A DNA stretch of 64,000 nt from Candidatus Saccharimonadales bacterium (GCA_035717985.1 DASTHW010000014.1:17691-81690), one strand, 5' to 3'; shown: positions 4,645 through 35,219, counted from the stretch's first letter. The notes: a model not told the origin generated them from the sequence alone. Made by a program: numbers and translations.

Positions 4645-4730
4645 GGGCGGAAGGTCCCTCTTAGCATTAGCGTTATTATATCTGAAGACAGGCCGCTAAA
4701 GAATGCCCAAATTAGCTAGTAGTGCGGAGA

Positions 4731-5468
4731 CTAAATCTCAAATTCAGCCAAAATCGGCAAATGGTCGGAAAATTTGGTCGAAATAATCTGGCTGGATAAA
4801 ACTTTGATATCCGGCGTAGTGAAAATATAGTCGACCCGCCAATCCAGCCCCTTAACGTCGAAACCGAGAAATGAAAACGGGATGGTGCTAAAGCTGGGCT
4901 CGGTCTCATCCGGTCCGGCCGAGACAAAACGGCTCTTCAGCTCTTTTATAATTTTGGTGTCTTTGGTGGAGTTAAAATCGCCGGTTATGACGAAGCGGGA
5001 CTTCTGGGTGCCTACGGCGGTCATTAACTTTTGCAGTTGGGCCAGCCTATCGGGCGTGTCGGCAAAATTAGGCGCGAAGGATAGGTGCGTAGTGCCGACG
5101 GTAAGCGGCCGGCCTTCAATGTTAACTACTGCTTCTACGTAGATTCGCTGTTCGCTCTTATTATTGGACGTTGGGTTAGGGCCGCTCCATAATTCAACTT
5201 TTTTCTTGGCCGTCATGGGGAAGTTAGAAAATATGCCGTTACCTAGGTTTAGTTCCTCGCCGGAGGCGCCCAGTATGTTAGCCGGCTCAAAATAATGCTC
5301 AGCAAACATTTGCGCCAATTGGGTAAGTGCATGATTGGAGTGCGCGCCCTCACCGCCAAGCTCTTGAACGCAGAGGATGTCGGGCTTAATTTCTTTAACT
5401 AGCGAGGCAATATTCTCGGCCTTTTCTTCGTACAAAATGTTCCAGTGTAGTAAGCTTACAGTTTTCAT
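4731..5468 (-). CDS. Endonuclease/exonuclease/phosphatase (EEP) family protein
   Basis: N-terminal WNILYE...LCVQE and C-terminal SDHLPI strings are typical of the EEP fold. Confidence 0.8.
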   Translation of the reverse strand: MKTVSLLHWNILYEEKAENIASLVKEIKPDILCVQELGGEGAHSNHALTQLAQMFAEHYFEPANILGASGEELNLGNGIFSNFPMTAKKKVELWSGPNPTSNNKSEQRIYVEAVVNIEGRPLTVGTTHLSFAPNFADTPDRLAQLQKLMTAVGTQKSRFVITGDFNSTKDTKIIKELKSRFVSAGPDETEPSFSTIPFSFLGFDVKGLDWRVDYIFTTPDIKVLSSQIISTKFSDHLPILAEFEI

Positions 5469-5490
5469 AGCTGGTATTATAACCTTTGAT

Positions 5491-6954
5491 GTGAGCAGTT
5501 TTTATTTTTATGATTTAGAGACTAGCGGTGTGAGTCCGCGCCGCGACCGCGTTATGCAGTTTGCCGGCCAGCGCACCAACCGCGACTTAAAGCCCATCGG
5601 CCAGCCGGATAATTTCTTAATTAAGCTGACGGCGGATATTTTGCCGGACCCGTACGCTGTTTTAATTACCGGTATAACACCTCAGCAAACTTTGGCTAGC
5701 GGCATAACCGAGGCCCAATTTCTCCGCCACTTTACAGATAAAATTGCCACGTCCGACACTATCATCCTGGGCTTTAACAATGTGCGGTTTGATGATGAGT
5801 TTATGCGCTTTATGCTGTGGCGCAATTTTTACGATGCCTACGAGTGGCAATGGAAAGATGGCTGTTCGCGCTGGGACTTGCTGGATTTAGTGCGCATGAC
5901 GCGGGCCCTACGCCCCGACGGCATCAAGTGGCCGTACGCGCCCGATGGCAAGCCTACCAACCGCCTGGAATTTCTAAGCGCCGTCAATAAACTGACGCAC
6001 ATCAACCCGCATGACGCACTTAGCGATGTGATGGCCGCCATTGATGTGGCCCGGCTGATTAAAGCTAAACAGCCTAAACTGTTTGATTACCTGCTTAATG
6101 TAAGAGGCAAACAAAAAGCCGCGGCCCTAGTGGGCCGCGGCGAGCCATTAATCTATACCAGCGGCAAATATTCTTCTGAACATGCACACACCACGCTGGC
6201 CGTAAAGATAGCCGACCACCCGGACCGGAGCGCGGCCATTGTCTACGACCTTCGCATTGATCCGAAAGACTTTGCTGAATTATCGCCAAAAGAGCTAGCC
6301 GAAAAATGGAGCGCCTACGGCAAAGACGCACCGTACTTCCCAGCCAAGGTCCTAGCTTATAATAGGTGTCCGGCTGTGGCGCCGGCTAACGTGCTGGATG
6401 CTAAAAGCGCCAAACGCCTGGATTTGTCAGAGGCTAAAATCGCCAAACACTTAAAGGCCTTGCCGGAGGATTTTGGTGATAAATTAGTGCGGGCGTTGGA
6501 ACTTATAAATAAAGAGCGCCAGACCGAGATGGTGGTTGACCCGGCCAAAGTCGATGAACAGCTGTATGACGGTTTTGTGAATGGTGCTGACAAGCTAAAA
6601 ATGAGTGCCGTCCGGGCGGCTAGTGCCGAAGCGATTGACGGTCTTCACATTGATTTTAATGATGATAGGTTAAATGCGCTTCTGCCGCTCTATAAAGCCA
6701 GAAACTTCCCAGCCAGTCTTCAGCCGGATGAAAAGGCGGCCTGGGATAAATTTAAAACACAAAAACTAACTGGCGGTAAAGTTGACTTGCTGGCGCAATA
6801 TTTCAAAAAACTGGATGAACTTAGTAGTAGGCCCGCTCTAGCGGACGCCGAAAAATTCGTTCTTGAGGAACTTCGGCAATACGGGGGGTCGGTGAAACCA
6901 GCCAGCTGGCGCCCAGCCGCCCCAGCCGCCACCAAGCGCGGTGGCGCAAAATAA
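5491..6954 (+). CDS. sbcB: Exodeoxyribonuclease I
   Basis: DEDDh exonuclease motifs FYFYDLETSG, GFNNVRFDDEF and HDALSDV with an ExoI-like length. The listed start 5377 overlaps the divergent EEP gene. An in-frame GTG at 5491 sits just before the conserved N-terminus; start uncertain. Confidence 0.85.
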   Translation: MSSFYFYDLETSGVSPRRDRVMQFAGQRTNRDLKPIGQPDNFLIKLTADILPDPYAVLITGITPQQTLASGITEAQFLRHFTDKIATSDTIILGFNNVRFDDEFMRFMLWRNFYDAYEWQWKDGCSRWDLLDLVRMTRALRPDGIKWPYAPDGKPTNRLEFLSAVNKLTHINPHDALSDVMAAIDVARLIKAKQPKLFDYLLNVRGKQKAAALVGRGEPLIYTSGKYSSEHAHTTLAVKIADHPDRSAAIVYDLRIDPKDFAELSPKELAEKWSAYGKDAPYFPAKVLAYNRCPAVAPANVLDAKSAKRLDLSEAKIAKHLKALPEDFGDKLVRALELINKERQTEMVVDPAKVDEQLYDGFVNGADKLKMSAVRAASAEAIDGLHIDFNDDRLNALLPLYKARNFPASLQPDEKAAWDKFKTQKLTGGKVDLLAQYFKKLDELSSRPALADAEKFVLEELRQYGGSVKPASWRPAAPAATKRGGAK

Positions 6955-20869: not shown

Positions 20870-20957
20870 TGGTGGGCGAAAGAGGACTTGAACCTCCACG
20901 AGCTTAAAGCTCACTAGCTCCTGAAGCTAGCGCGTCTACCAATTCCGCCACTCGCCC
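20870..20957 (-). tRNA. tRNA-Leu (CAG)
   Basis: Reverse complement folds as a type II cloverleaf. Anticodon loop TTCAGGA, long variable arm, encoded CCA. Confidence 0.9.
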
Positions 20958-21056: not shown

Positions 21057-22688
21057 ATGTCTAAAATAGCCCAATACTTGCAGGAACATCTGATGGGGGA
21101 GGTGTCCGCCAGCCCGGAAGTACGCCGGCACTTTGCCCATGACGCCAGTATTTTAAGCCTGGCGCCGCAGGTAGTGGTTTACCCCAGAAACGAGAGTGAT
21201 GTGCGCAAAACCGCCAGCTTTTGCTGGCAGTTGGCTGAGCGTGGCCGGCCCGTACCGCTAACTGCCCGCGGCGGCGGTAGTGACACCTCCGGTGCGGCGC
21301 TAAGCGCCGGCATAATGCTGGTCTTTCCGGCCCACATGAACAAAATCCTAGAGCTAGATCCTAAAAAAGAGCAGATTATCGTTGAGCCGGGCGCTACTTA
21401 TGACAAGCTAGAGCAAACGCTTTTTACCCATGGTCTGTTTTTGCCGCCGTACCCGGCCAGCCAGCTGTACGCTACGGTTGGCGGCGGCATTGCCAATAAT
21501 GCTATCGGCGAGAAGTCGGTCAAATACGGTGCCACCGGCGACTACGTAGAGCGGCTCCGTGTAGTGCTGGCTAACGGCGAGATTATCGAGACCGGCAAGC
21601 TAAGCAAGCGGGAGCTAAATAAAAAGCTTGGCTTATCTAGTTTTGAGGGCGAAGTTTACCGCGGCGTTGATAAGCTGATTGAAGAGAATGCTGAGCTAAT
21701 CCGCCAGCAGGCCGGCCTAAGCCGGGCCGCCCACAACTCTATTGGTTATAATCTCTCGTCCGTAAAAACCAAACACGGCTTTGACCTGACACCGCTGTTT
21801 GTTGGCTCCCAGGGTACGCTGGGCATTGTTACGGAGGCTACGTTAAAAGTAGTTGTCCATAATCCGCTGACTAAATTGATTTTAGTTAGCTTTGAAAGAC
21901 TGGAAGACATGCAGGACGCCCTGCCTAAAATCCTGGCTCTCAAGCCCAGCGTTTGCGATATGATTACCAATTCCGCCATTAAGGAGGTTCTGCGTATCAA
22001 CCCGCATCAGCTGGATAATTTACTTCCCATGCCCAACGCCGAAATTCACCTGCTGGTAGAATTTGACGATTTTAAAAACTCCGATCAAAAAGGCTCGCTG
22101 AAGAAACTGGGTAAGATTACTGACCGGGCCGGCGCCTACAGCCTGGTGGCAGAGGCGCTAGATGACCAAGAAAAGCTAAGAAAAGTCCGTGAAAGTGTGG
22201 CCACGATTCTAAACGAGCCCAGCGGCCAGACTAAAGCCGTGCCGGTGGCCGAAGATATAGCCGTGCCGATAGAAAACTTGGCTGATTTTCTAAAGCAGGC
22301 CGCCAAAATTTATGAATCGCTAAATATCCGGCCGGCGGCCTGGGGGCAGGCCGGTGAGGGCGTGGTGCGCATGCACCCAATGTTTGATTTAGCACAAACC
22401 GGCGACCGCCAGCGCCTTTTCAAACTGTCCGATGCGCTTTATGCCACAGCCCTAAAACTGGGCGGCACCCTCTCAGCCGCTCACGGCGAGGGCCGGGTGC
22501 GGGCGCCATACTCTATATATATGTACGGCGAGGAACTTCAAAAGCTTATGCGGCAAGTTAAACAAGTATTTGACCCGCGCGGTATCTTAAACCCAGGCGT
22601 CAAGACGGCGACGGCCGATGATGTTAAAGCTATAATGCGCGGCGCCTATGATCAGGCCCACCGGCATGAGCACTTACCTCGTAGCTAA
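21057..22688 (+). CDS. FAD-binding oxidoreductase (GlcD/FAD_binding_4 family)
   Basis: VVYPRNESDV...RGGGSDTSG FAD-binding signature and a C-terminal FAD-oxidase domain (HGEGRVRAP). Confidence 0.8.
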   Translation: MSKIAQYLQEHLMGEVSASPEVRRHFAHDASILSLAPQVVVYPRNESDVRKTASFCWQLAERGRPVPLTARGGGSDTSGAALSAGIMLVFPAHMNKILELDPKKEQIIVEPGATYDKLEQTLFTHGLFLPPYPASQLYATVGGGIANNAIGEKSVKYGATGDYVERLRVVLANGEIIETGKLSKRELNKKLGLSSFEGEVYRGVDKLIEENAELIRQQAGLSRAAHNSIGYNLSSVKTKHGFDLTPLFVGSQGTLGIVTEATLKVVVHNPLTKLILVSFERLEDMQDALPKILALKPSVCDMITNSAIKEVLRINPHQLDNLLPMPNAEIHLLVEFDDFKNSDQKGSLKKLGKITDRAGAYSLVAEALDDQEKLRKVRESVATILNEPSGQTKAVPVAEDIAVPIENLADFLKQAAKIYESLNIRPAAWGQAGEGVVRMHPMFDLAQTGDRQRLFKLSDALYATALKLGGTLSAAHGEGRVRAPYSIYMYGEELQKLMRQVKQVFDPRGILNPGVKTATADDVKAIMRGAYDQAHRHEHLPRS

Positions 22689-29073: not shown

Positions 29074-29775
29074 ATGGTATACTATATACGCATGAGGTAT
29101 AAAACGGCAAATCACAAACCCATAGTCTGGTCACCGGAATTTTCATACTGTATCGGTCTCATTGCTACAGACGGCTGTCTGTCCAGCGACAATCGTCACA
29201 TAGACTTTACTTCGAAGGACTATGAGCTTGCTGAAATATTCCGGAATATCATTAAGCCGAGTGCGATTATCGGCAAAAAAAGAAATGGCCAGGGCGCCTT
29301 TGCATATCGAGTGCAATTTAGTGATGTTTCTCTGTACGATTTTCTTTTAAAGTTGGGTTTGACCCCCAGAAAGAGTAAAACCTTGGGGCGCTTGTTGGTT
29401 CCCGATGAATTTTATGCTGATTTTTTACGAGGATGCTGGGACGGTGACGGGTCAAGTAATGGTTACTGGGATAGGCGTTGGCGATCAAGCTTTATGTATT
29501 ATATGTCCCTAGCTTCAGCTAGCACCGCTTTTCTTGAGTGGATTAGATATAAAAATACTGAATTAATTGAAATTTCTGCCCCCGCCATCAAGGAGTATCT
29601 TAAGAACGATAGAACGTATTATGTTTTAAGTTACGCCAAGAAAGATTCTCGAAAACTTTTTGAGTTTATTTATTATGCCGAGGGATTACCATTTTTAAAG
29701 AGAAAGCATAATAAAATGCTAAAATTTTTTATGACAGATCCAGCTTCTGCGAGGGTGAGTGGTGAAATTAGGTAA
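29074..29775 (+). CDS. LAGLIDADG-family homing endonuclease (double-motif)
   Basis: Two LAGLIDADG-type motifs: YCIGLIATDGCL and DFLRGCWDGDGSS. AT-rich. The last 23 nt overlap tRNA-Leu(GAG). Confidence 0.8.
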   Translation: MVYYIRMRYKTANHKPIVWSPEFSYCIGLIATDGCLSSDNRHIDFTSKDYELAEIFRNIIKPSAIIGKKRNGQGAFAYRVQFSDVSLYDFLLKLGLTPRKSKTLGRLLVPDEFYADFLRGCWDGDGSSNGYWDRRWRSSFMYYMSLASASTAFLEWIRYKNTELIEISAPAIKEYLKNDRTYYVLSYAKKDSRKLFEFIYYAEGLPFLKRKHNKMLKFFMTDPASARVSGEIR

Positions 29776-30394: not shown

Positions 30395-30593
30395 CGCAAG
30401 ACCTAATTTCGGCCCCGCCCGAAATTTCGGCAATCAAGTGGCCAAACTTTTGCAGGGCCTAGCATTGTTCTTGCTTACCAATTTTATAAAAATCCGCTTT
30501 GCAAATTTTTGTAAAATTGAGAGGAGGAGCATAGCATCAAGGTGAAGCTTTTGCTGACGAGGCAAAACGAACTAGATGCGTAGGCTCCGACGA

Positions 30594-30619
30594 GCGGGTG
30601 TAGCTCAGTTGTTTAGAGT
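30594..30619 (+). pseudogene. Orphan 5' fragment of tRNA-Gly (acceptor 5' strand plus D arm)
   Basis: 25 of 26 nt identical to 30771-30796 of the intact tRNA-Gly. No matching 3' half follows. Confidence 0.7.
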
Positions 30620-30770
30620 GAAAAATGCCGGTGGCATTTTGCAAGGGAATCTTCCGATGGCAACTGGTTGCCAGTCGTGAAGTTCCGGGGTCGCGGAACG
30701 TGACCTTACTTGCCAGGCCAAGGAAGCGCTACCCAAAATTGAAAGGTAACCTTTACAATCAGAATATTAT

Positions 30771-30847
30771 GCGGGTGTAGCTCAGTTGTTTAGAGCGCTT
30801 CCTTGCCAAGGAAGAGGCCGTGAGTTAGAGTCTCATCACCCGCACCA
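30771..30847 (+). tRNA. tRNA-Gly (GCC) with atypical D and T loops
   Basis: Cloverleaf with anticodon loop TTGCCAA and encoded CCA. D loop AGTTGTTTA lacks GG; T loop is TTAGAGT (A instead of C56). Confidence 0.8.
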
Positions 30848-30899
30848 ACCAAAGAGTCCGGCTTGCCCGGGCTTTTTGGTTGGTATGTTGAATGACTAG

Positions 30900-30988
30900 T
30901 AACTCACGGCCTCTTCAAAATAAAACAATCTGGCCATGCGCCCATGACCCGCCAGGGTCATGGGCTTTGAGTCTCATCACCCGCACCA
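30900..30988. repeat. Rearranged shards of the tRNA-Gly 3' half
   Basis: 30900-30916 is the exact reverse complement of tRNA positions 30811-30827 (17 nt). 30969-30988 is an exact direct copy of the last 20 nt (30828-30847). Confidence 0.75.
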
Positions 30989-31005
30989 AGATGACACCAA
31001 TGATT

Positions 31006-31033
31006 GCTCCCTATCAAGGGAGCTTTTATTTTT
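31006..31033 (+). terminator. Rho-independent terminator
   Basis: GCTCCCT-ATCA-AGGGAGC followed by TTTTATTTTT. Confidence 0.7.
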
Positions 31034-31166
31034 CTTGATTGAGCCGTCGGTTTCCAACCTGCGTCCCGTGAAGTTGACCTCACGAGACAAAATCTCCCAT
31101 TTTACAGATTGAAAATACGGTTTCAACTCTCAAAAATTTGACTCAGCAAATGCTATAGTACAAAAG

Positions 31167-32537
31167 ATGATTCCTTATGTTGATTTCAGTTTTAATAAGC
31201 GACCGTTTGCCTCAAAAAATCCTTTTGAAATGCATGACGAGCCACTGACTATATTCATTGACCGTGCAAGCTTTAAGGGCACGCCTAAAAAATTAAAGGT
31301 GCTTTTAATGCAGGCTAGCGAAAATCTTAATATCGTCAGTCCGAAGAAAGAAGGAAGTGCACACCTAGAATACATGGACAGAGATGATGATGTGCTGGGG
31401 TTTACAGTAACCCAGCTTGACAGCACAAGTATAGGCCACCACGGCATACCTTCTATAAGCCAGTACGATAGACTGTCTAAAGTACCTGACTTTACCAGGT
31501 GGGCTACAAGCGGTGAAATTTACAGAGCCTTTATTGCCGCCCGTACAGCCGAAGCACTAGGCGCAATATTAATAACCCAAGATAAGTTCCTTCTGGAGCA
31601 TAAGGCCATTGGCATAATCGGCGATGCCTATCCTCTAACAATTGATGAGGGCATGGCCTTAATTGGCCTGGTGCAACGCCGCCGTAATAACTTTGAAATA
31701 GTCACTAGGGTTGGTGTGCCCAAGTATACCTATAACTACTCTCGCTGGCTATATTTTTGGTATGCCTCACGTGATTTATTACCCTCGGGCTGGCGTCTGG
31801 TTACTGGCAGCGCCCAAGTGCCCGATGACTATAAATGTCGTGACCTAAGCCTTACGGTTATAGCCAGGCTTTCCAGTGTGCTAAAGTGCCGTGACCATAT
31901 ACACGAGCAGCTATACCTTGAGCAAACTAACAGCAGTACCGAAGACGCAATATTTTACCTAGACTATTACATGGTGTCATTGGTCGCTGCTTTTGATGTG
32001 CTAGCAAGGGTAGCACACGCCATATATCAACCCAGTACACGGGCTACGGTAACTTGGCGAGGAAGTGCCCATGGCCGTAGCTGGTTGTCAGCACTGACCA
32101 CCCAAGATGCTAGCCTGGCAAGCTTGATGCAGCCCACTGCGTTTTGCAGAGATGTACTAGATTTTGTAGCTATTCTTAGGAACTTTATACATGCCGAAGG
32201 TTTGCAAGGAGCTACGCATACCAAAAATGGTAAACGTGCACCTACCTTGTTACATGTACCAGAGGGTGAAGTTACTAGGATATTTGACATCATACAACGG
32301 CTTGGCCCCACTAATTGGAACATAGACAGGCCCCGACCAAACGTTATGTTCCTAGAGATCGGTAACCTAGTAGAAAACATAACGCCACTGGCGGCAGAAG
32401 CTTTGGAAACGATTATGAAGAATATTGACGTTACCAGGGTGCCAGGGTACGACCCTACCAAGGTGCAAACTAGACCGCCTTCGAAGTGGGCCACTAAAGA
32501 CGACCTGGCAATGATACGTGCTTTTCTAGGCCTTTAG
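31167..32537 (+). CDS. Hypothetical protein (456 aa), possible PIN-like N-terminal region; AT-rich island gene
   Basis: Long ORF with no SD; TATAGT lies 7 nt upstream of the ATG. IFIDRASF and AARTAEALGAILITQDKFL resemble PIN-domain strands by eye only. C-terminal LRNFIHAEG is near but not equal to the HEPN Rx4-6H motif. Confidence 0.6.
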   Translation: MIPYVDFSFNKRPFASKNPFEMHDEPLTIFIDRASFKGTPKKLKVLLMQASENLNIVSPKKEGSAHLEYMDRDDDVLGFTVTQLDSTSIGHHGIPSISQYDRLSKVPDFTRWATSGEIYRAFIAARTAEALGAILITQDKFLLEHKAIGIIGDAYPLTIDEGMALIGLVQRRRNNFEIVTRVGVPKYTYNYSRWLYFWYASRDLLPSGWRLVTGSAQVPDDYKCRDLSLTVIARLSSVLKCRDHIHEQLYLEQTNSSTEDAIFYLDYYMVSLVAAFDVLARVAHAIYQPSTRATVTWRGSAHGRSWLSALTTQDASLASLMQPTAFCRDVLDFVAILRNFIHAEGLQGATHTKNGKRAPTLLHVPEGEVTRIFDIIQRLGPTNWNIDRPRPNVMFLEIGNLVENITPLAAEALETIMKNIDVTRVPGYDPTKVQTRPPSKWATKDDLAMIRAFLGL

Positions 32538-34138
32538 TTAGGATCGCTTTCAAACTCTTTAACGACTTTTACGATTTTTTCGTAGTTCTTCTTGGTGTTG
32601 TTTATATAAATATTAATCAGCTTGGCCAGGTCTTCTTTTTTCAGCACACCCTTGGCATACATGAGCCTTTTAAGCTCATTGGTTCGCTTATGGTCCTTAA
32701 AGGCCTGCTTGGTATATTCAATTTTCTTGGCACGGCTAGCCGTGTAGTATGGCTTGTTAGCCATAGCTACGCCGTAGTCAAAGTCAAACATGATTTTTAT
32801 GGCACGCAGCGTAAGCCGCCGTATGGTAGCCACATCATCTTCCTTAACGTTTTCCAGCTGGGTCTTGATAGCCTCAAGCCTTTCGATGTAGCCCTCATTA
32901 AGCAATATGCATAGAGCAGACCCTGGCCTAGGAAAATCCTTTTCCTTTAAGTCCAGTGCCTTTCCGTGTATCAGCACGCCGTCTGACCAACAAATAAATC
33001 GATCTTTCTTGTGCCTTTTCGACATAAAAGCCTCTTCGTCTATTGCTATTACTTGAAGCGGGAATTCGTTCATTTCCCATTCAATCTTGCGGTGTGTGAT
33101 CAGGTAAAAGTTAAAATCGGAAATGCCAGGCTCAAACTCACCACGGGGCAAGCTACCAACCAGGTAAACGGCTACGAGCTCACCCGATATATCTTTATTA
33201 GCCAGGGACATGTCAATCAGCTGCTGTACGGCTTTCTTTTGCGGATCGTCTAGTTTATCCAGACTAGCCTCGTTTTTAACCTTGAAAGAACCCAGGAAGT
33301 CAGAGTAATCTGCAAACACCTTGGCTATTTCAGCCATATCAGTGGGAACTGAAAAGCCTTCAATAAGGTGGCTAGCTATAGATTCAACCGATTTATTAAT
33401 CTCTTCAAGCACCTGGCCGTGATTTTCCAGAACTTCGCTCTTAAACTTTTCAAATGACTTGGTTCCTAGATCTTCCATATACTGTTTCCCGTAGGGGGAT
33501 AGCTGCTGAAAAGCCGTGGGGCTAAGCATTAACCTCGAAGTTTTTATATCTTGGAATTCTTTTTTCAGCTCCAGTTTTGCCAGATAGTGGTGGTGCATGG
33601 TCCGCCGTTTTAGCGTCTTACCAATCGGGCCGTCAACTTCCTCCGTCCATCGTTGGAACTCCTCGGTTAAGCCCAGCTGCTCTAATTTTGCTTTGTTTTC
33701 CTCTCTTCTAAAAAACGCTTTAAGAGCCCTAGGCCCTGGATCCCTGTTTGGGTTTGGTGGGGTTTCTTCAAGCATCATAAGCCTGGTAAGCTGACGTATT
33801 TTATCTTTTAGTTGGTGCACTAAGTCAAAGAAAGCACCAAGGTGATAATTGATTAGTTGCTCAGGGGTAAATTCGCTGTCAGACGCTTCAAACTCAACCT
33901 TACTAATTAGCTGGCTATTAATCCGCAGCTCACGCAGTAACCGCTCAATATCACCGCTATAACTTCGTCTGCGGTTTACCAGCACCAGGTCGAAGCTTTC
34001 TCGATCAATAACATAGTAATGCGGCTCGTCTATTTGCCGCTGAAAGCTAAGAGCTAGCAAACCTTGCACTAGCTGCTCAAGCTGGCTTTTACTGTCGGGG
34101 CTTTTCTCTTTTGCCATGCGCTTATTATAGGGGAGCAA
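32534..34138 (-). CDS. Nucleotidyltransferase-fold (Pol-beta/MNT-like) domain protein with about 300-aa unknown N-terminal region
   Basis: VYLVGSLPRGEFEPGISDFNFYLI fits hG[GS]x9-13Dh[DE]h except that the second carboxylate is Asn. Helical C-terminal domain, AT-rich. Its stop overlaps the stop of 31167..32537. Confidence 0.65.
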   Translation of the reverse strand: MLPYNKRMAKEKSPDSKSQLEQLVQGLLALSFQRQIDEPHYYVIDRESFDLVLVNRRRSYSGDIERLLRELRINSQLISKVEFEASDSEFTPEQLINYHLGAFFDLVHQLKDKIRQLTRLMMLEETPPNPNRDPGPRALKAFFRREENKAKLEQLGLTEEFQRWTEEVDGPIGKTLKRRTMHHHYLAKLELKKEFQDIKTSRLMLSPTAFQQLSPYGKQYMEDLGTKSFEKFKSEVLENHGQVLEEINKSVESIASHLIEGFSVPTDMAEIAKVFADYSDFLGSFKVKNEASLDKLDDPQKKAVQQLIDMSLANKDISGELVAVYLVGSLPRGEFEPGISDFNFYLITHRKIEWEMNEFPLQVIAIDEEAFMSKRHKKDRFICWSDGVLIHGKALDLKEKDFPRPGSALCILLNEGYIERLEAIKTQLENVKEDDVATIRRLTLRAIKIMFDFDYGVAMANKPYYTASRAKKIEYTKQAFKDHKRTNELKRLMYAKGVLKKEDLAKLINIYINNTKKNYEKIVKVVKEFESDPN

Positions 34139-34337
34139 CAGCAGTTACGATACTAGTACGCTCTAGCTCGGCAGAAGAGTTCCAGATAGCTTCAACAAAA
34201 GCCCGGCAAACCGTTACAACTATATAAATATTGCCCAGCATTTGTCGGCTAAAACCTTATGCTGCACCTCTGAGAAAAGTTACACTTTCACAAATTGTGT
34301 TGCACCATATACATGTAACATTAAAGTCTAAGGGTAG

Positions 34338-35069: not shown

Positions 35070-35219
35070 TATGGTGTAAAAAGTTATAACCTTCTCGGCT
35101 CATGTTGTAGTCGATACTATAACAAAGCAGAATAACTTCTAAGCGCAGTTACACTTTCACGAATAATGCTACACCATATTTGTAAACTTCTTTAAGGAGT
35201 TTTTTGTTACGATAAATAT

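Follow-up and report, generated by a model that had tools for sequence, protein, structure and literature searches.

Direct and inverted partial copies around a tRNA-Gly gene of Saccharimonadales: a short conserved block with a possible fold-back origin

Introduction

Partial copies of tRNA genes are routinely read as footprints of decaying genomic islands, and they are used to delimit such islands automatically. Does this reading fit the surroundings of a tRNA-Gly(GCC) gene of Candidatus Saccharimonadales bacterium (GCA_035717985.1, DASTHW010000014.1:17691-81690; the whole 64,000-nt stretch is called the window below), where direct and inverted pieces of the gene lie on both of its sides? An earlier note on this DNA described four such fragments and took them for attL/attR scars of integrase-mediated insertion, left at a decayed or repeatedly used site, with a module of AT-rich genes starting shortly downstream.

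Here, the same signature belongs to a short conserved block that recurs behind several tRNA genes in a lineage of the Candidate Phyla Radiation (CPR), and its mirror-image geometry suggests copying templated by hairpins. If this holds, some tRNA-gene (tDNA) fragments would be maintained elements and not scars, and island calling from them would mislead in these genomes. The neighboring genes at 31-34 kb do not appear to be bounded by the fragments. As to the origin of the fragments, we tentatively lean toward a fold-back duplication involving hairpins of the gene itself, after which the downstream block was retained as a structured element.

Results

Partial copies of the tRNA-Gly gene

The intact gene was found by both ARAGORN and Rfam at the place given in the earlier note, and it is 100% identical in at least 10 other Saccharimonadales contigs. 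The assignment of the window to Saccharimonadales (CPR/Patescibacteria) follows from its flanking proteins. Scans of genome and metagenome DNA with tRNA-Gly patterns gave 8 and 7 loci, respectively, and the window's own species is represented by one genome only in the collections; fetched loci are cited below by their L numbers.

All four reported fragments were recovered (Table 1). The 5' copy matches tRNA positions 1-26 at 25 of 26 nt, 25 of them as one exact run. The shorter inverted copy (30719-30730) is an exact 12-nt match to positions 24-35, or 12/13 when taken as 30718-30730; it also holds a 10-nt direct match, GCCAAGGAAG, both orientations being matched because the anticodon stem is palindromic. 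The longer inverted copy is the exact 17-nt reverse complement of 30811-30827 (positions 41-57), and the direct 3' copy reproduces positions 58-77 exactly over 20 nt (30969-30988) and extends to 23/24 over positions 55-78, one base beyond CCA. The flipped 41-57 piece and the direct 58-77 piece jointly tile the 3' half of the tRNA, as had been noted. For the 20-mer and the 26-mer, 0.00 matches with up to three mismatches are expected in shuffled sequence, and neither occurs elsewhere in the 64-kb window. None of the window's other eight tRNAs (0/8) has fragments of itself nearby.

A conserved block downstream of the gene

On the 3' side, the 17-nt inverted piece, a 50-nt core and the direct copy form a block of about 90 nt. 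The same layout is found downstream of tRNA-Gly on two other Saccharimonadales contigs from metagenome-assembled genomes (MAGs), L012 and L014, both of which carry the identical tRNA. The shared order is a hairpin, the inverted copy, an A-rich stretch with the motif ATCTGGCC(A/G)TG, an 11-bp hairpin with a GCCA loop, and the copy running from the T loop to the acceptor. The motif pairs with the inverted copy, and the 11-bp hairpin shows compensatory changes. The direct copy ends at position 73 or 71 in L012 and L014, so that the CCA is not conserved.

Over 83-85 nt, the block of the window is 89 and 86% identical to those of L012 and L014, respectively. The same two comparisons give 15/17 and 16/17 for the inverted copy, 43/50 and 40/50 for the non-tRNA core, and 17/19 and 16/20 for the direct copy, as against 41 and 46% for the first hairpin and 43 and 34% for the sequence after the block. 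For calibration, the adjacent RibD_C orthologue is 82% identical as a protein and 54.5% identical at synonymous third positions. Since the core stands far above both the spacers and the synonymous sites, which are saturated, the block is constrained or recently exchanged, not decaying. By this measure, conservation of the block (30900-30984) in the two other genomes exceeds the neutral expectation by a wide margin, and the suggestion of a decayed site fails for the downstream fragments, which are parts of a block kept in L012 and L014.

The block is absent from genomes with an identical tRNA (L013, L018, and L020-L025), and the trailers of block-less genomes cannot be aligned to the sequence beyond the distal copy. 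No further Gly-type block was found at the loci of RibD_C homologues (L099, L100, and L106-L117), and the Gly cores are single-copy in the window. Viral contigs of IMG/VR were queried with a 15-mer of the Gly core hairpin, the Gly A-rich/CTGGCC motif, the Met core, the Phe core motif, and the 3' ends of tRNA-Gly and tRNA-Phe; only chance 15-18-mers or nothing was returned. A small coding region was considered as well and rejected: the 50-aa open reading frame (ORF) at 30960-31112 stops after two codons in L012.

Mirror geometry about the trailer hairpin

The 17-nt segment present in inverted copy spans the 3' strand of the anticodon stem, the variable loop, the 5' strand of the T stem, and the first three bases of the T loop. 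The symmetry axis of this inverted repeat falls 16.5 nt beyond the tRNA, and that of the trailer hairpin directly behind the gene 17.0 nt beyond it. As the two axes coincide, the inverted shard forms the outermost part of an imperfect palindrome of ~106 bp centered on the loop of the trailer hairpin, with complementarity in the outer 17 nt and in the inner hairpin and a degenerate middle. Coincidence within 0-3 nt is also seen in L012, L014, the tRNA-Phe element of L001, and both tRNA-Met elements of L104. Thus, in 6/6 elements (three Gly, one Phe, and two Met) the axis of the inverted repeat falls 14-17 nt and that of the hairpin 17-18 nt beyond the tRNA, whose terminal CA, CCA, or ACCA is in every case part of the hairpin stem.

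In the window, the ACCA of the tRNA is paired with TGGT in this stem, and the hairpin contains a T5 run. It is probably the native trailer of the gene, judging by its resemblance to the trailer of L024, a locus without the block (0/300 shuffles as similar). A terminator scan did not include it among its predictions. A second terminator-like hairpin closes the block. The two hairpins resemble each other in the MetB element of L104 (0/1000 shuffles), in the Phe element of L001 (p 0.01), and weakly in the window (p ~0.012), and are dissimilar in four other elements. An extension of the inverted copy to about position 72, suspected by eye, was not significant on its own; the arms of the hairpin at 30940-30965 and the stretch 30885-30899 had also been taken for degenerate tRNA copies, which proved not significant in the window alone.

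Recurrence behind other tRNA genes

Recurrence was assessed in 67 non-redundant tRNA-plus-flank sequences from the fetched loci. A direct copy of the tRNA's own 3' end within 260 nt was found for six of them: Gly in the window and in L012, Phe in L001 and in L012, and two Met genes in L104. Truncated or degenerate versions occur in L014 and L013, and a variant in L018. Inverted matches of at least 9 nt were found for four tRNAs, all among the six, and never in the absence of a direct copy (0 cases). The unit size is constant at about 140-175 nt. The cores differ completely between tRNA types. In the two Met modules of L104, an 85-nt core is 92% identical, and the inverted piece and a 29-nt direct copy each match the module's own tRNA. 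The L018 variant holds a 343-nt insertion with a GIY-YIG ORF (238-540) inside the hairpin after tRNA-Gly, flanked by 18-nt repeats of the tRNA-Gly 3' end.

Folding energies compared with shuffled sequences gave z-scores between -2.3 and -4.8 in eight of nine sequences, the remaining one being the Phe element of L012 (z -0.9). Helix-preserving compensatory changes were observed in all three families (Gly, Phe, and Met), in the case of Phe from three lineages. The modules are under a structural constraint, which may act on RNA or on DNA. A count of G-U vs C-A pairs on the plus strand was also made, and it is biased by the method of structure prediction. Searches against Rfam 15 at gathering and permissive thresholds (E up to 10 for the window, up to 1 for L104 and L001) returned tRNAs only.

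A displaced gene start on the 5' side

The 60-80 nt in front of the 26-nt 5' fragment are homologous to what directly precedes tRNA-Gly in other genomes: L001 and L003 show 79% identity over 85 nt, the flank of L112 scores 60 (0/500 shuffles as high), and L012 and L022 match too. The junction CTCCGACGA|GCGGGTG is common to the leader and fragment of the window and to these relatives. Because this leader matches what abuts tRNA-Gly in relatives, the 26-mer is the gene's original start, still joined to the native leader and displaced by an insertion, and the proposal that it is an att copy was not borne out.

The segment between the two gene starts contrasts with this leader. The 60 nt directly 5' of the intact gene, spacer included, show no similarity to the tRNA-Gly 5' flank of any relative, and nothing matching the 84-nt upstream core was found in the fetched loci or in the rest of the window. 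The inverted copy that follows this core reached a local alignment score of 30 against the tRNA (0/300 shuffles as high). A promoter-like match, TTGAAA-18-AATATT, lies at 30739-30768 (consensus match only). Taken together, a 177-bp segment was inserted, bringing a new copy of positions 1-25 and the inverted copy of positions 4-47; the insertion is seen on this contig only. The alternative that the insert carries the 'short-promoter' flank of other tRNA-Gly alleles found no support in the comparison of flanks.

The leader itself carries a motif, TTGAGAGGAGGAGC ... GAAGCTTTTGC-loop-GGCAAAACGAA ... CTCCGACGA, that is conserved and precedes several different tRNA genes in the clade. Besides the window, it was located at L025 1332-1403, L014 5831-5876, L005 8907-8929, and L007 10500-10519, as well as 3' of the MetB module of L104. 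It has no Rfam match.

Table 1. Features at and around the tRNA-Gly gene (positions counted from the first nucleotide of the window).
Feature	Position	Strand	Remarks
Native 5' leader of tRNA-Gly	30513..30593	+	Hairpin GAAGCTTTTGC...GGCAAAACGAA; ends CTCCGACGA; abuts the 5' fragment, not the intact gene
5' fragment, tRNA positions 1-26	30594..30619	+	25/26; native flank attached
Upstream core	30620..30703	+	84 nt, hairpin-rich; this genome only
Degenerate inverted copy, tRNA positions 4-47	30704..30751	-	Includes the exact 12-mer 30719-30730
Spacer directly 5' of the intact gene	30752..30770	+	Overlapped by promoter-like match
Intact tRNA-Gly(GCC)	30771..30847	+	Encoded CCA; ARAGORN; Rfam, 70 bits
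Long imperfect palindrome	30811..30916	.	~106 bp; tRNA 3' half, trailer hairpin, mirror copy
Trailer hairpin right after the tRNA	30844..30884	+	18-nt arms, 89% complementary; terminator-like
Exact inverted copy, tRNA positions 41-57	30900..30916	-	Kept 15/17 in L012, 16/17 in L014
Downstream core	30917..30965	+	A-rich stretch; motif ATCTGGCC(A/G)TG; 11-bp hairpin 30940-30965, loop GCCA
Direct copy of T loop, T-stem 3' strand, acceptor 3' strand, CCA and one base	30966..30989	+	23/24; 20 exact
Second intrinsic-terminator-like hairpin and T run	31006..31032	+	Closes the block
Convergent gene pair	31167..34138	.	456 aa (+), 31167-32537; 534 aa (-), 32534-34138; context, outside the echo structure

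Neighboring genes and recombinases

The AT-rich genes downstream are not bounded by the tRNA fragments, as had been supposed: the module lies outside the pair of 3'-end repeats, only 121 nt and no genes separate the two 3'-end copies, and no repeat was found at the far side of the module within the 64 kb. Repeats bounding the 31-36 kb genes were likewise missing, apart from a promoter-like 45-nt direct repeat (78% identical, 34266-34310 and 35135-35179) located 5' of the Hsp20 gene and of the first RibD_C gene, which looks like a shared promoter or operator. A comparison with genomes lacking the 31-34 kb genes had been proposed earlier. In L012, the block runs directly into the RibD_C orthologue, so the region of 31.0-36.3 kb is extra in the window and the block is kept without those genes.

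The absence of an integrase was confirmed: Pfam searches of ORFs of at least 170 aa over 14.9-53.1 kb revealed no recombinase, and tblastn with two large serine recombinases (LSRs) found nothing. A transposase was not found either, and the repeats are tRNA-derived and 18-29 nt long. A derivative of a miniature inverted-repeat transposable element or insertion sequence was not supported; the cores are single-copy in the window, and only L104 has two, both at tRNA-Met.

The 456-aa and 534-aa proteins of the convergent pair have no match in Pfam, NCBIfam, or PADLOC. The 456-aa family counts about 20 proteins; its members occur in LSR islands in three of five other contexts (L104, L118, and L119), and the gene retains its convergent partner in L101-L103. 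The 31-34 kb genes are thus probably the remnant of a serine-recombinase island, and the pair could act as a defense or accessory module. Members of the 456-aa family often follow an ORF of 720-742 aa, and by eye the 534-aa protein shows a nucleotidyltransferase-like GS...RGE...D.D stretch. This rare pair travels with LSR islands.

The recombinases found at tRNA genes of relatives are serine and not tyrosine enzymes. LSR genes read into the 3' half of a tRNA in L007-L010 (Gly; e.g., L008 10858-12423), L104 (Met; 4705-6240), and L119 (Glu; 1223-2938), their last codons being encoded by the tRNA complement. In L007-L010, a 522-aa Resolvase-domain gene ends inside tRNA-Gly with the T-loop TTA (positions 55-57) as its stop codon, which coincides with the 57/58 boundary of the fragments in the window. 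Saccharimonadales tRNA genes are in this sense preferred sites of LSR islands.

The tRNA cluster

In the window, the tRNA cluster is arranged as tRNA-Val, a LAGLIDADG ORF, tRNA-Leu, a NUDIX gene, tRNA-Phe, and tRNA-Gly. The arrangement around tRNA-Gly, a hot spot of rearrangement, differs in each related lineage: the gene lies beside tRNA-Phe in one relative, 3.5 kb away from it in another, and in the opposite orientation in still others.

Saccharimonadales tRNA genes also host free-standing homing-endonuclease genes among them. These genes, the LSR islands, and the gene pair that goes with the islands all have a bearing on DNA exchange in these tiny genomes. Apart from the GIY-YIG ORF of L018, the LAGLIDADG ORF of the window (29074-29775, plus strand) sits between tRNA-Val and tRNA-Leu(gag), overlapping the latter by 23 nt, and it is kept in the closest RibD_C relatives (L106 2809-3498, L107 5819-6508, and L109 1851-2540). 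In L014, an HNH ORF (6035-6526) separates tRNA-Cys from tRNA-Leu(taa).

The elbow of the tRNA-Gly is unusual. Its D loop is AGTTGTTTA, with U at the expected G19, and its T loop is TTAGAGT, with A at the expected C56, so that the G19-C56 tertiary pair would become U-A; the sequence is 100% conserved in many relatives. In one MAG, two contigs (L014 1-55 and L017 1-70; CAYUXQ010000015 and CAYUXQ010000005) end and begin inside tRNA-Gly with a 55-nt overlap, which suggests a branch of the assembly graph at the tRNA 3' end and possibly population heterogeneity at the site. Elsewhere in the window, 14 nt at 21965-21978 (TACCAATTCCGCCA) exactly repeat a part of tRNA-Leu(cag) (20870-20957, minus strand) from ~1 kb off, which may be due to chance.

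Discussion

A fold-back origin of the fragments

Two modules flank the gene, each ordered as tRNA, inverted copy, unrelated hairpin core, and direct copy of the gene end. The 3' side reads positions 41-77, the reverse complement of 41-57, and then 55-77, and the 5' side reads positions 1-26, the reverse complement of 4-47, and then 1-77. The direct-inverted-direct order and a mirror axis placed at a pre-existing hairpin fit fold-back copying. We therefore put forward, as a tentative explanation held short of confidence, that the fragments arose by fold-back duplication at the gene's own hairpins and that the 3' block was retained as a structured element. Breaks or strand switches would have occurred at the stem-loops of the gene (the T loop and the junction of the D and anticodon stems) and at the trailer hairpin. 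Fold-back copying in the direct-inverted-direct manner of tandem inversion duplication and quasi-palindrome template switching would have followed, leaving one intact gene and displaced ends. Also in favor of this explanation are the native leader attached to the fragment instead of the intact gene, the direct copy that accompanies every inverted match, the similarity of first and second trailer hairpins, and the lack of a mobile-element signature, with no recombinase, no cargo between the repeats, and a small, constant unit size. Hairpin-templated copying could keep the echo segments in register with the invariant tRNA, and selection would then have kept the 3' block as a structured spacer between the tRNA terminator and the hypervariable region.

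A number of observations weigh against this explanation. Plain fold-back does not predict the unrelated cores between the copies, and no recognizable palindrome marks the second turn, from inverted to direct, or either of the 5' junctions. Conservation of the block is seen in three Gly-type sequences only, and L012 and L014 form a mosaic relative to each other (first hairpin 94% identical, core 78%), which recombination may explain. Folding energies show no consistent strand preference. The core present at both tRNA-Met genes of L104 implies movement or gene conversion and suits a mobile mini-element better. Furthermore, for each of the three types of tRNA the start of the direct copy falls in or at the T arm (positions 49-59), the classic crossover site of tRNA-targeting recombinases, where the L007-L010 gene ends. 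The T-arm start, the coincidence with the stop codon, and the shared Met core keep a recombination-site origin alive.

Other origins and functions

Such an origin, which we regard as possible though doubtful, would make the fragments attL/attR-type half-site remnants of elements integrating at the T loop, with the LSRs of relatives as the likely agents. The 140-175-bp units would then represent either islands in decay or miniature non-autonomous elements mobilized in trans, and the inverted half-site would stem from inversion, or from an event in the wrong orientation, at a TA crossover that is symmetric. Direct copies that run from the T loop to CCA are what such elements leave, and the 57/58 boundary falls at the T-loop TTA stop of the L007-L010 recombinase. 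Moreover, the inverted (41-60) and direct (55-71) copies of L014 overlap in the T loop, as expected of hybrid sites, and L012 has a 10-7-10 quasi-palindrome, GGGTCATGAG-CTAGAGT-CTCATCACCC, beside its direct copy. The LSRs overlapping tRNA-Met (L104) and tRNA-Glu (L119), accompanied by 456-aa cargo, the common core at two tRNA-Met genes, the GIY-YIG insertion between tRNA-Gly 3'-end repeats in L018, and the relatives that have the identical tRNA without the block argue in the same direction. However, a recombinase is absent from every unit, none of the 67 tRNA loci has a full-size element between such repeats, and the LSR islands of L008, L104, and L119 have no displaced tRNA end within 10-16 kb. 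Nor would remnants of this kind account for the mirror symmetry about the trailer hairpin, for a tRNA-proximal trailer that looks native, or for conservation far above neutral divergence. No core or tRNA end was met on IMG/VR viral contigs, and a 141-bp circle is a poor recombination substrate. The attL/attR interpretation of the earlier note is partly supported: the direct T-loop-to-CCA copy, the hot spot, and the LSRs at tRNA genes of relatives speak for it, and the missing recombinase or cargo between the copies, the mirror copies, and the conservation speak against it.

A broader reading of the recurrence, about which we are no less hesitant, is that Saccharimonadales carry an undescribed 'tRNA echo' family of conserved ~90-170-nt hairpin modules behind tRNA genes, with re-templated outer segments and movable cores. 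As part of this suggestion, the outer segments would be an inverted copy mirrored at the terminator and a direct copy from the T arm to the 3' end; the role might be that of a structured RNA engaging the cognate tRNA or of a DNA site for tRNA-targeting recombinases.

That the 3' block is specifically an RNA acting on its cognate tRNA (as a sponge, a processing guide, or a control of read-through) seems improbable. Such an RNA would be transcribed together with the tRNA or just after it, and its 17-nt antisense segment and its sense copy of T arm and acceptor strand would allow pairing with tRNA-Gly or its precursor, or a switch between self-pairing and tRNA-pairing. The tRNA-derived and non-tRNA parts are alike in their strong conservation, helices of the Gly, Phe, and Met families show compensatory changes, every module corresponds to its own tRNA, and terminator-like hairpins on the tRNA strand enclose the block on either side, all of which would suit an RNA. 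The lack of an Rfam family match and of strand preference in folding energy, the structure-derivation bias behind the plus-strand G-U excess, the non-conserved CCA and last acceptor bases of the direct copy, the failure to find a conserved promoter, and the wholly different cores between tRNA types all count against it.

Natural transformation, with the tRNA serving as a one-sided anchor and an illegitimate join made in the resident gene (homology-facilitated illegitimate recombination), has at best a slim chance of being the source of the displaced ends. A tRNA that is 100% identical across many lineages would be an ideal anchor, the 5' fragment stops abruptly at position 25/26 and is followed by sequence without any relative, and gene order around the tRNA cluster changes from lineage to lineage; yet this would leave unexplained why mirror-image tRNA copies lie on both sides, why the layout recurs at other tRNAs, and why the 3' block is conserved. 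Finally, chance matches or an assembly artefact, for which only the presence of the 5' module on a single contig speaks, are very unlikely given the zero matches expected in shuffles, the occurrence of the 3' block in two independent assemblies, and the length of the repeats, 17-26 nt being too short to cause or to arise from misassembly.

Comparison with known systems

Displaced tDNA fragments are known to mark integrase-mediated islands, as exploited by Islander (PMC4383910) and as described for tycheposon remnants in Prochlorococcus (bioRxiv 10.1101/2020.12.28.424599). The locus shares with these scars the intact tRNA with a direct 3' copy from the T loop, the hot spot, and the recombinases of relatives at the same tRNA. 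It differs from them in the 121 nt between the copies with no integrase or cargo, in the serine instead of tyrosine enzymes of relatives, in the mirror copies on both sides, in the displaced 5' end, and in being conserved and not decaying.

Tandem inversion duplications and quasi-palindrome template switching have reportedly been described by Kugelberg, Roth and co-workers in 2010, by Ripley in 1982, and by the Lovett lab. Like tandem inversion duplications, the modules have a direct-inverted-direct order, a first junction at a pre-existing hairpin, and complementary arms, and remodeling that leaves partial copies is common to both. Those duplications are large, unstable, selected intermediates of amplification, known from studies in Salmonella and E. 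coli, whereas the modules here are ~100-180 bp long, fixed, conserved, recurrent at tRNAs, and provided with unrelated cores.

Two further systems bear on the alternative of half-site remnants. Cis-mobilizable elements (CIMEs) lack a recombinase, are bounded by att sites, are kilobases long, and derive from identifiable integrative and conjugative elements or integrative and mobilizable elements. The present units resemble them as short gene-less units with direct repeats of an attachment sequence at a tRNA-type site, but they are far shorter, and no parent element with these cores was found among the loci and contigs searched. In LSR sites of the phiC31/Bxb1 type, symmetric central dinucleotides allow either orientation, and normally 2 bp are shared, with no long repeats. 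The quasi-palindrome around the T-loop TA, the possible inverted half-sites, and the genes of relatives overlapping tRNA 3' halves recall such sites, in contrast to the long repeats here and to the window, which holds no LSR gene or remnant. From known displaced tDNA ends, the locus differs in its tiny gene-less unit, its mirror copies on both sides, its conservation, and its recurrence with re-templating for each tRNA.

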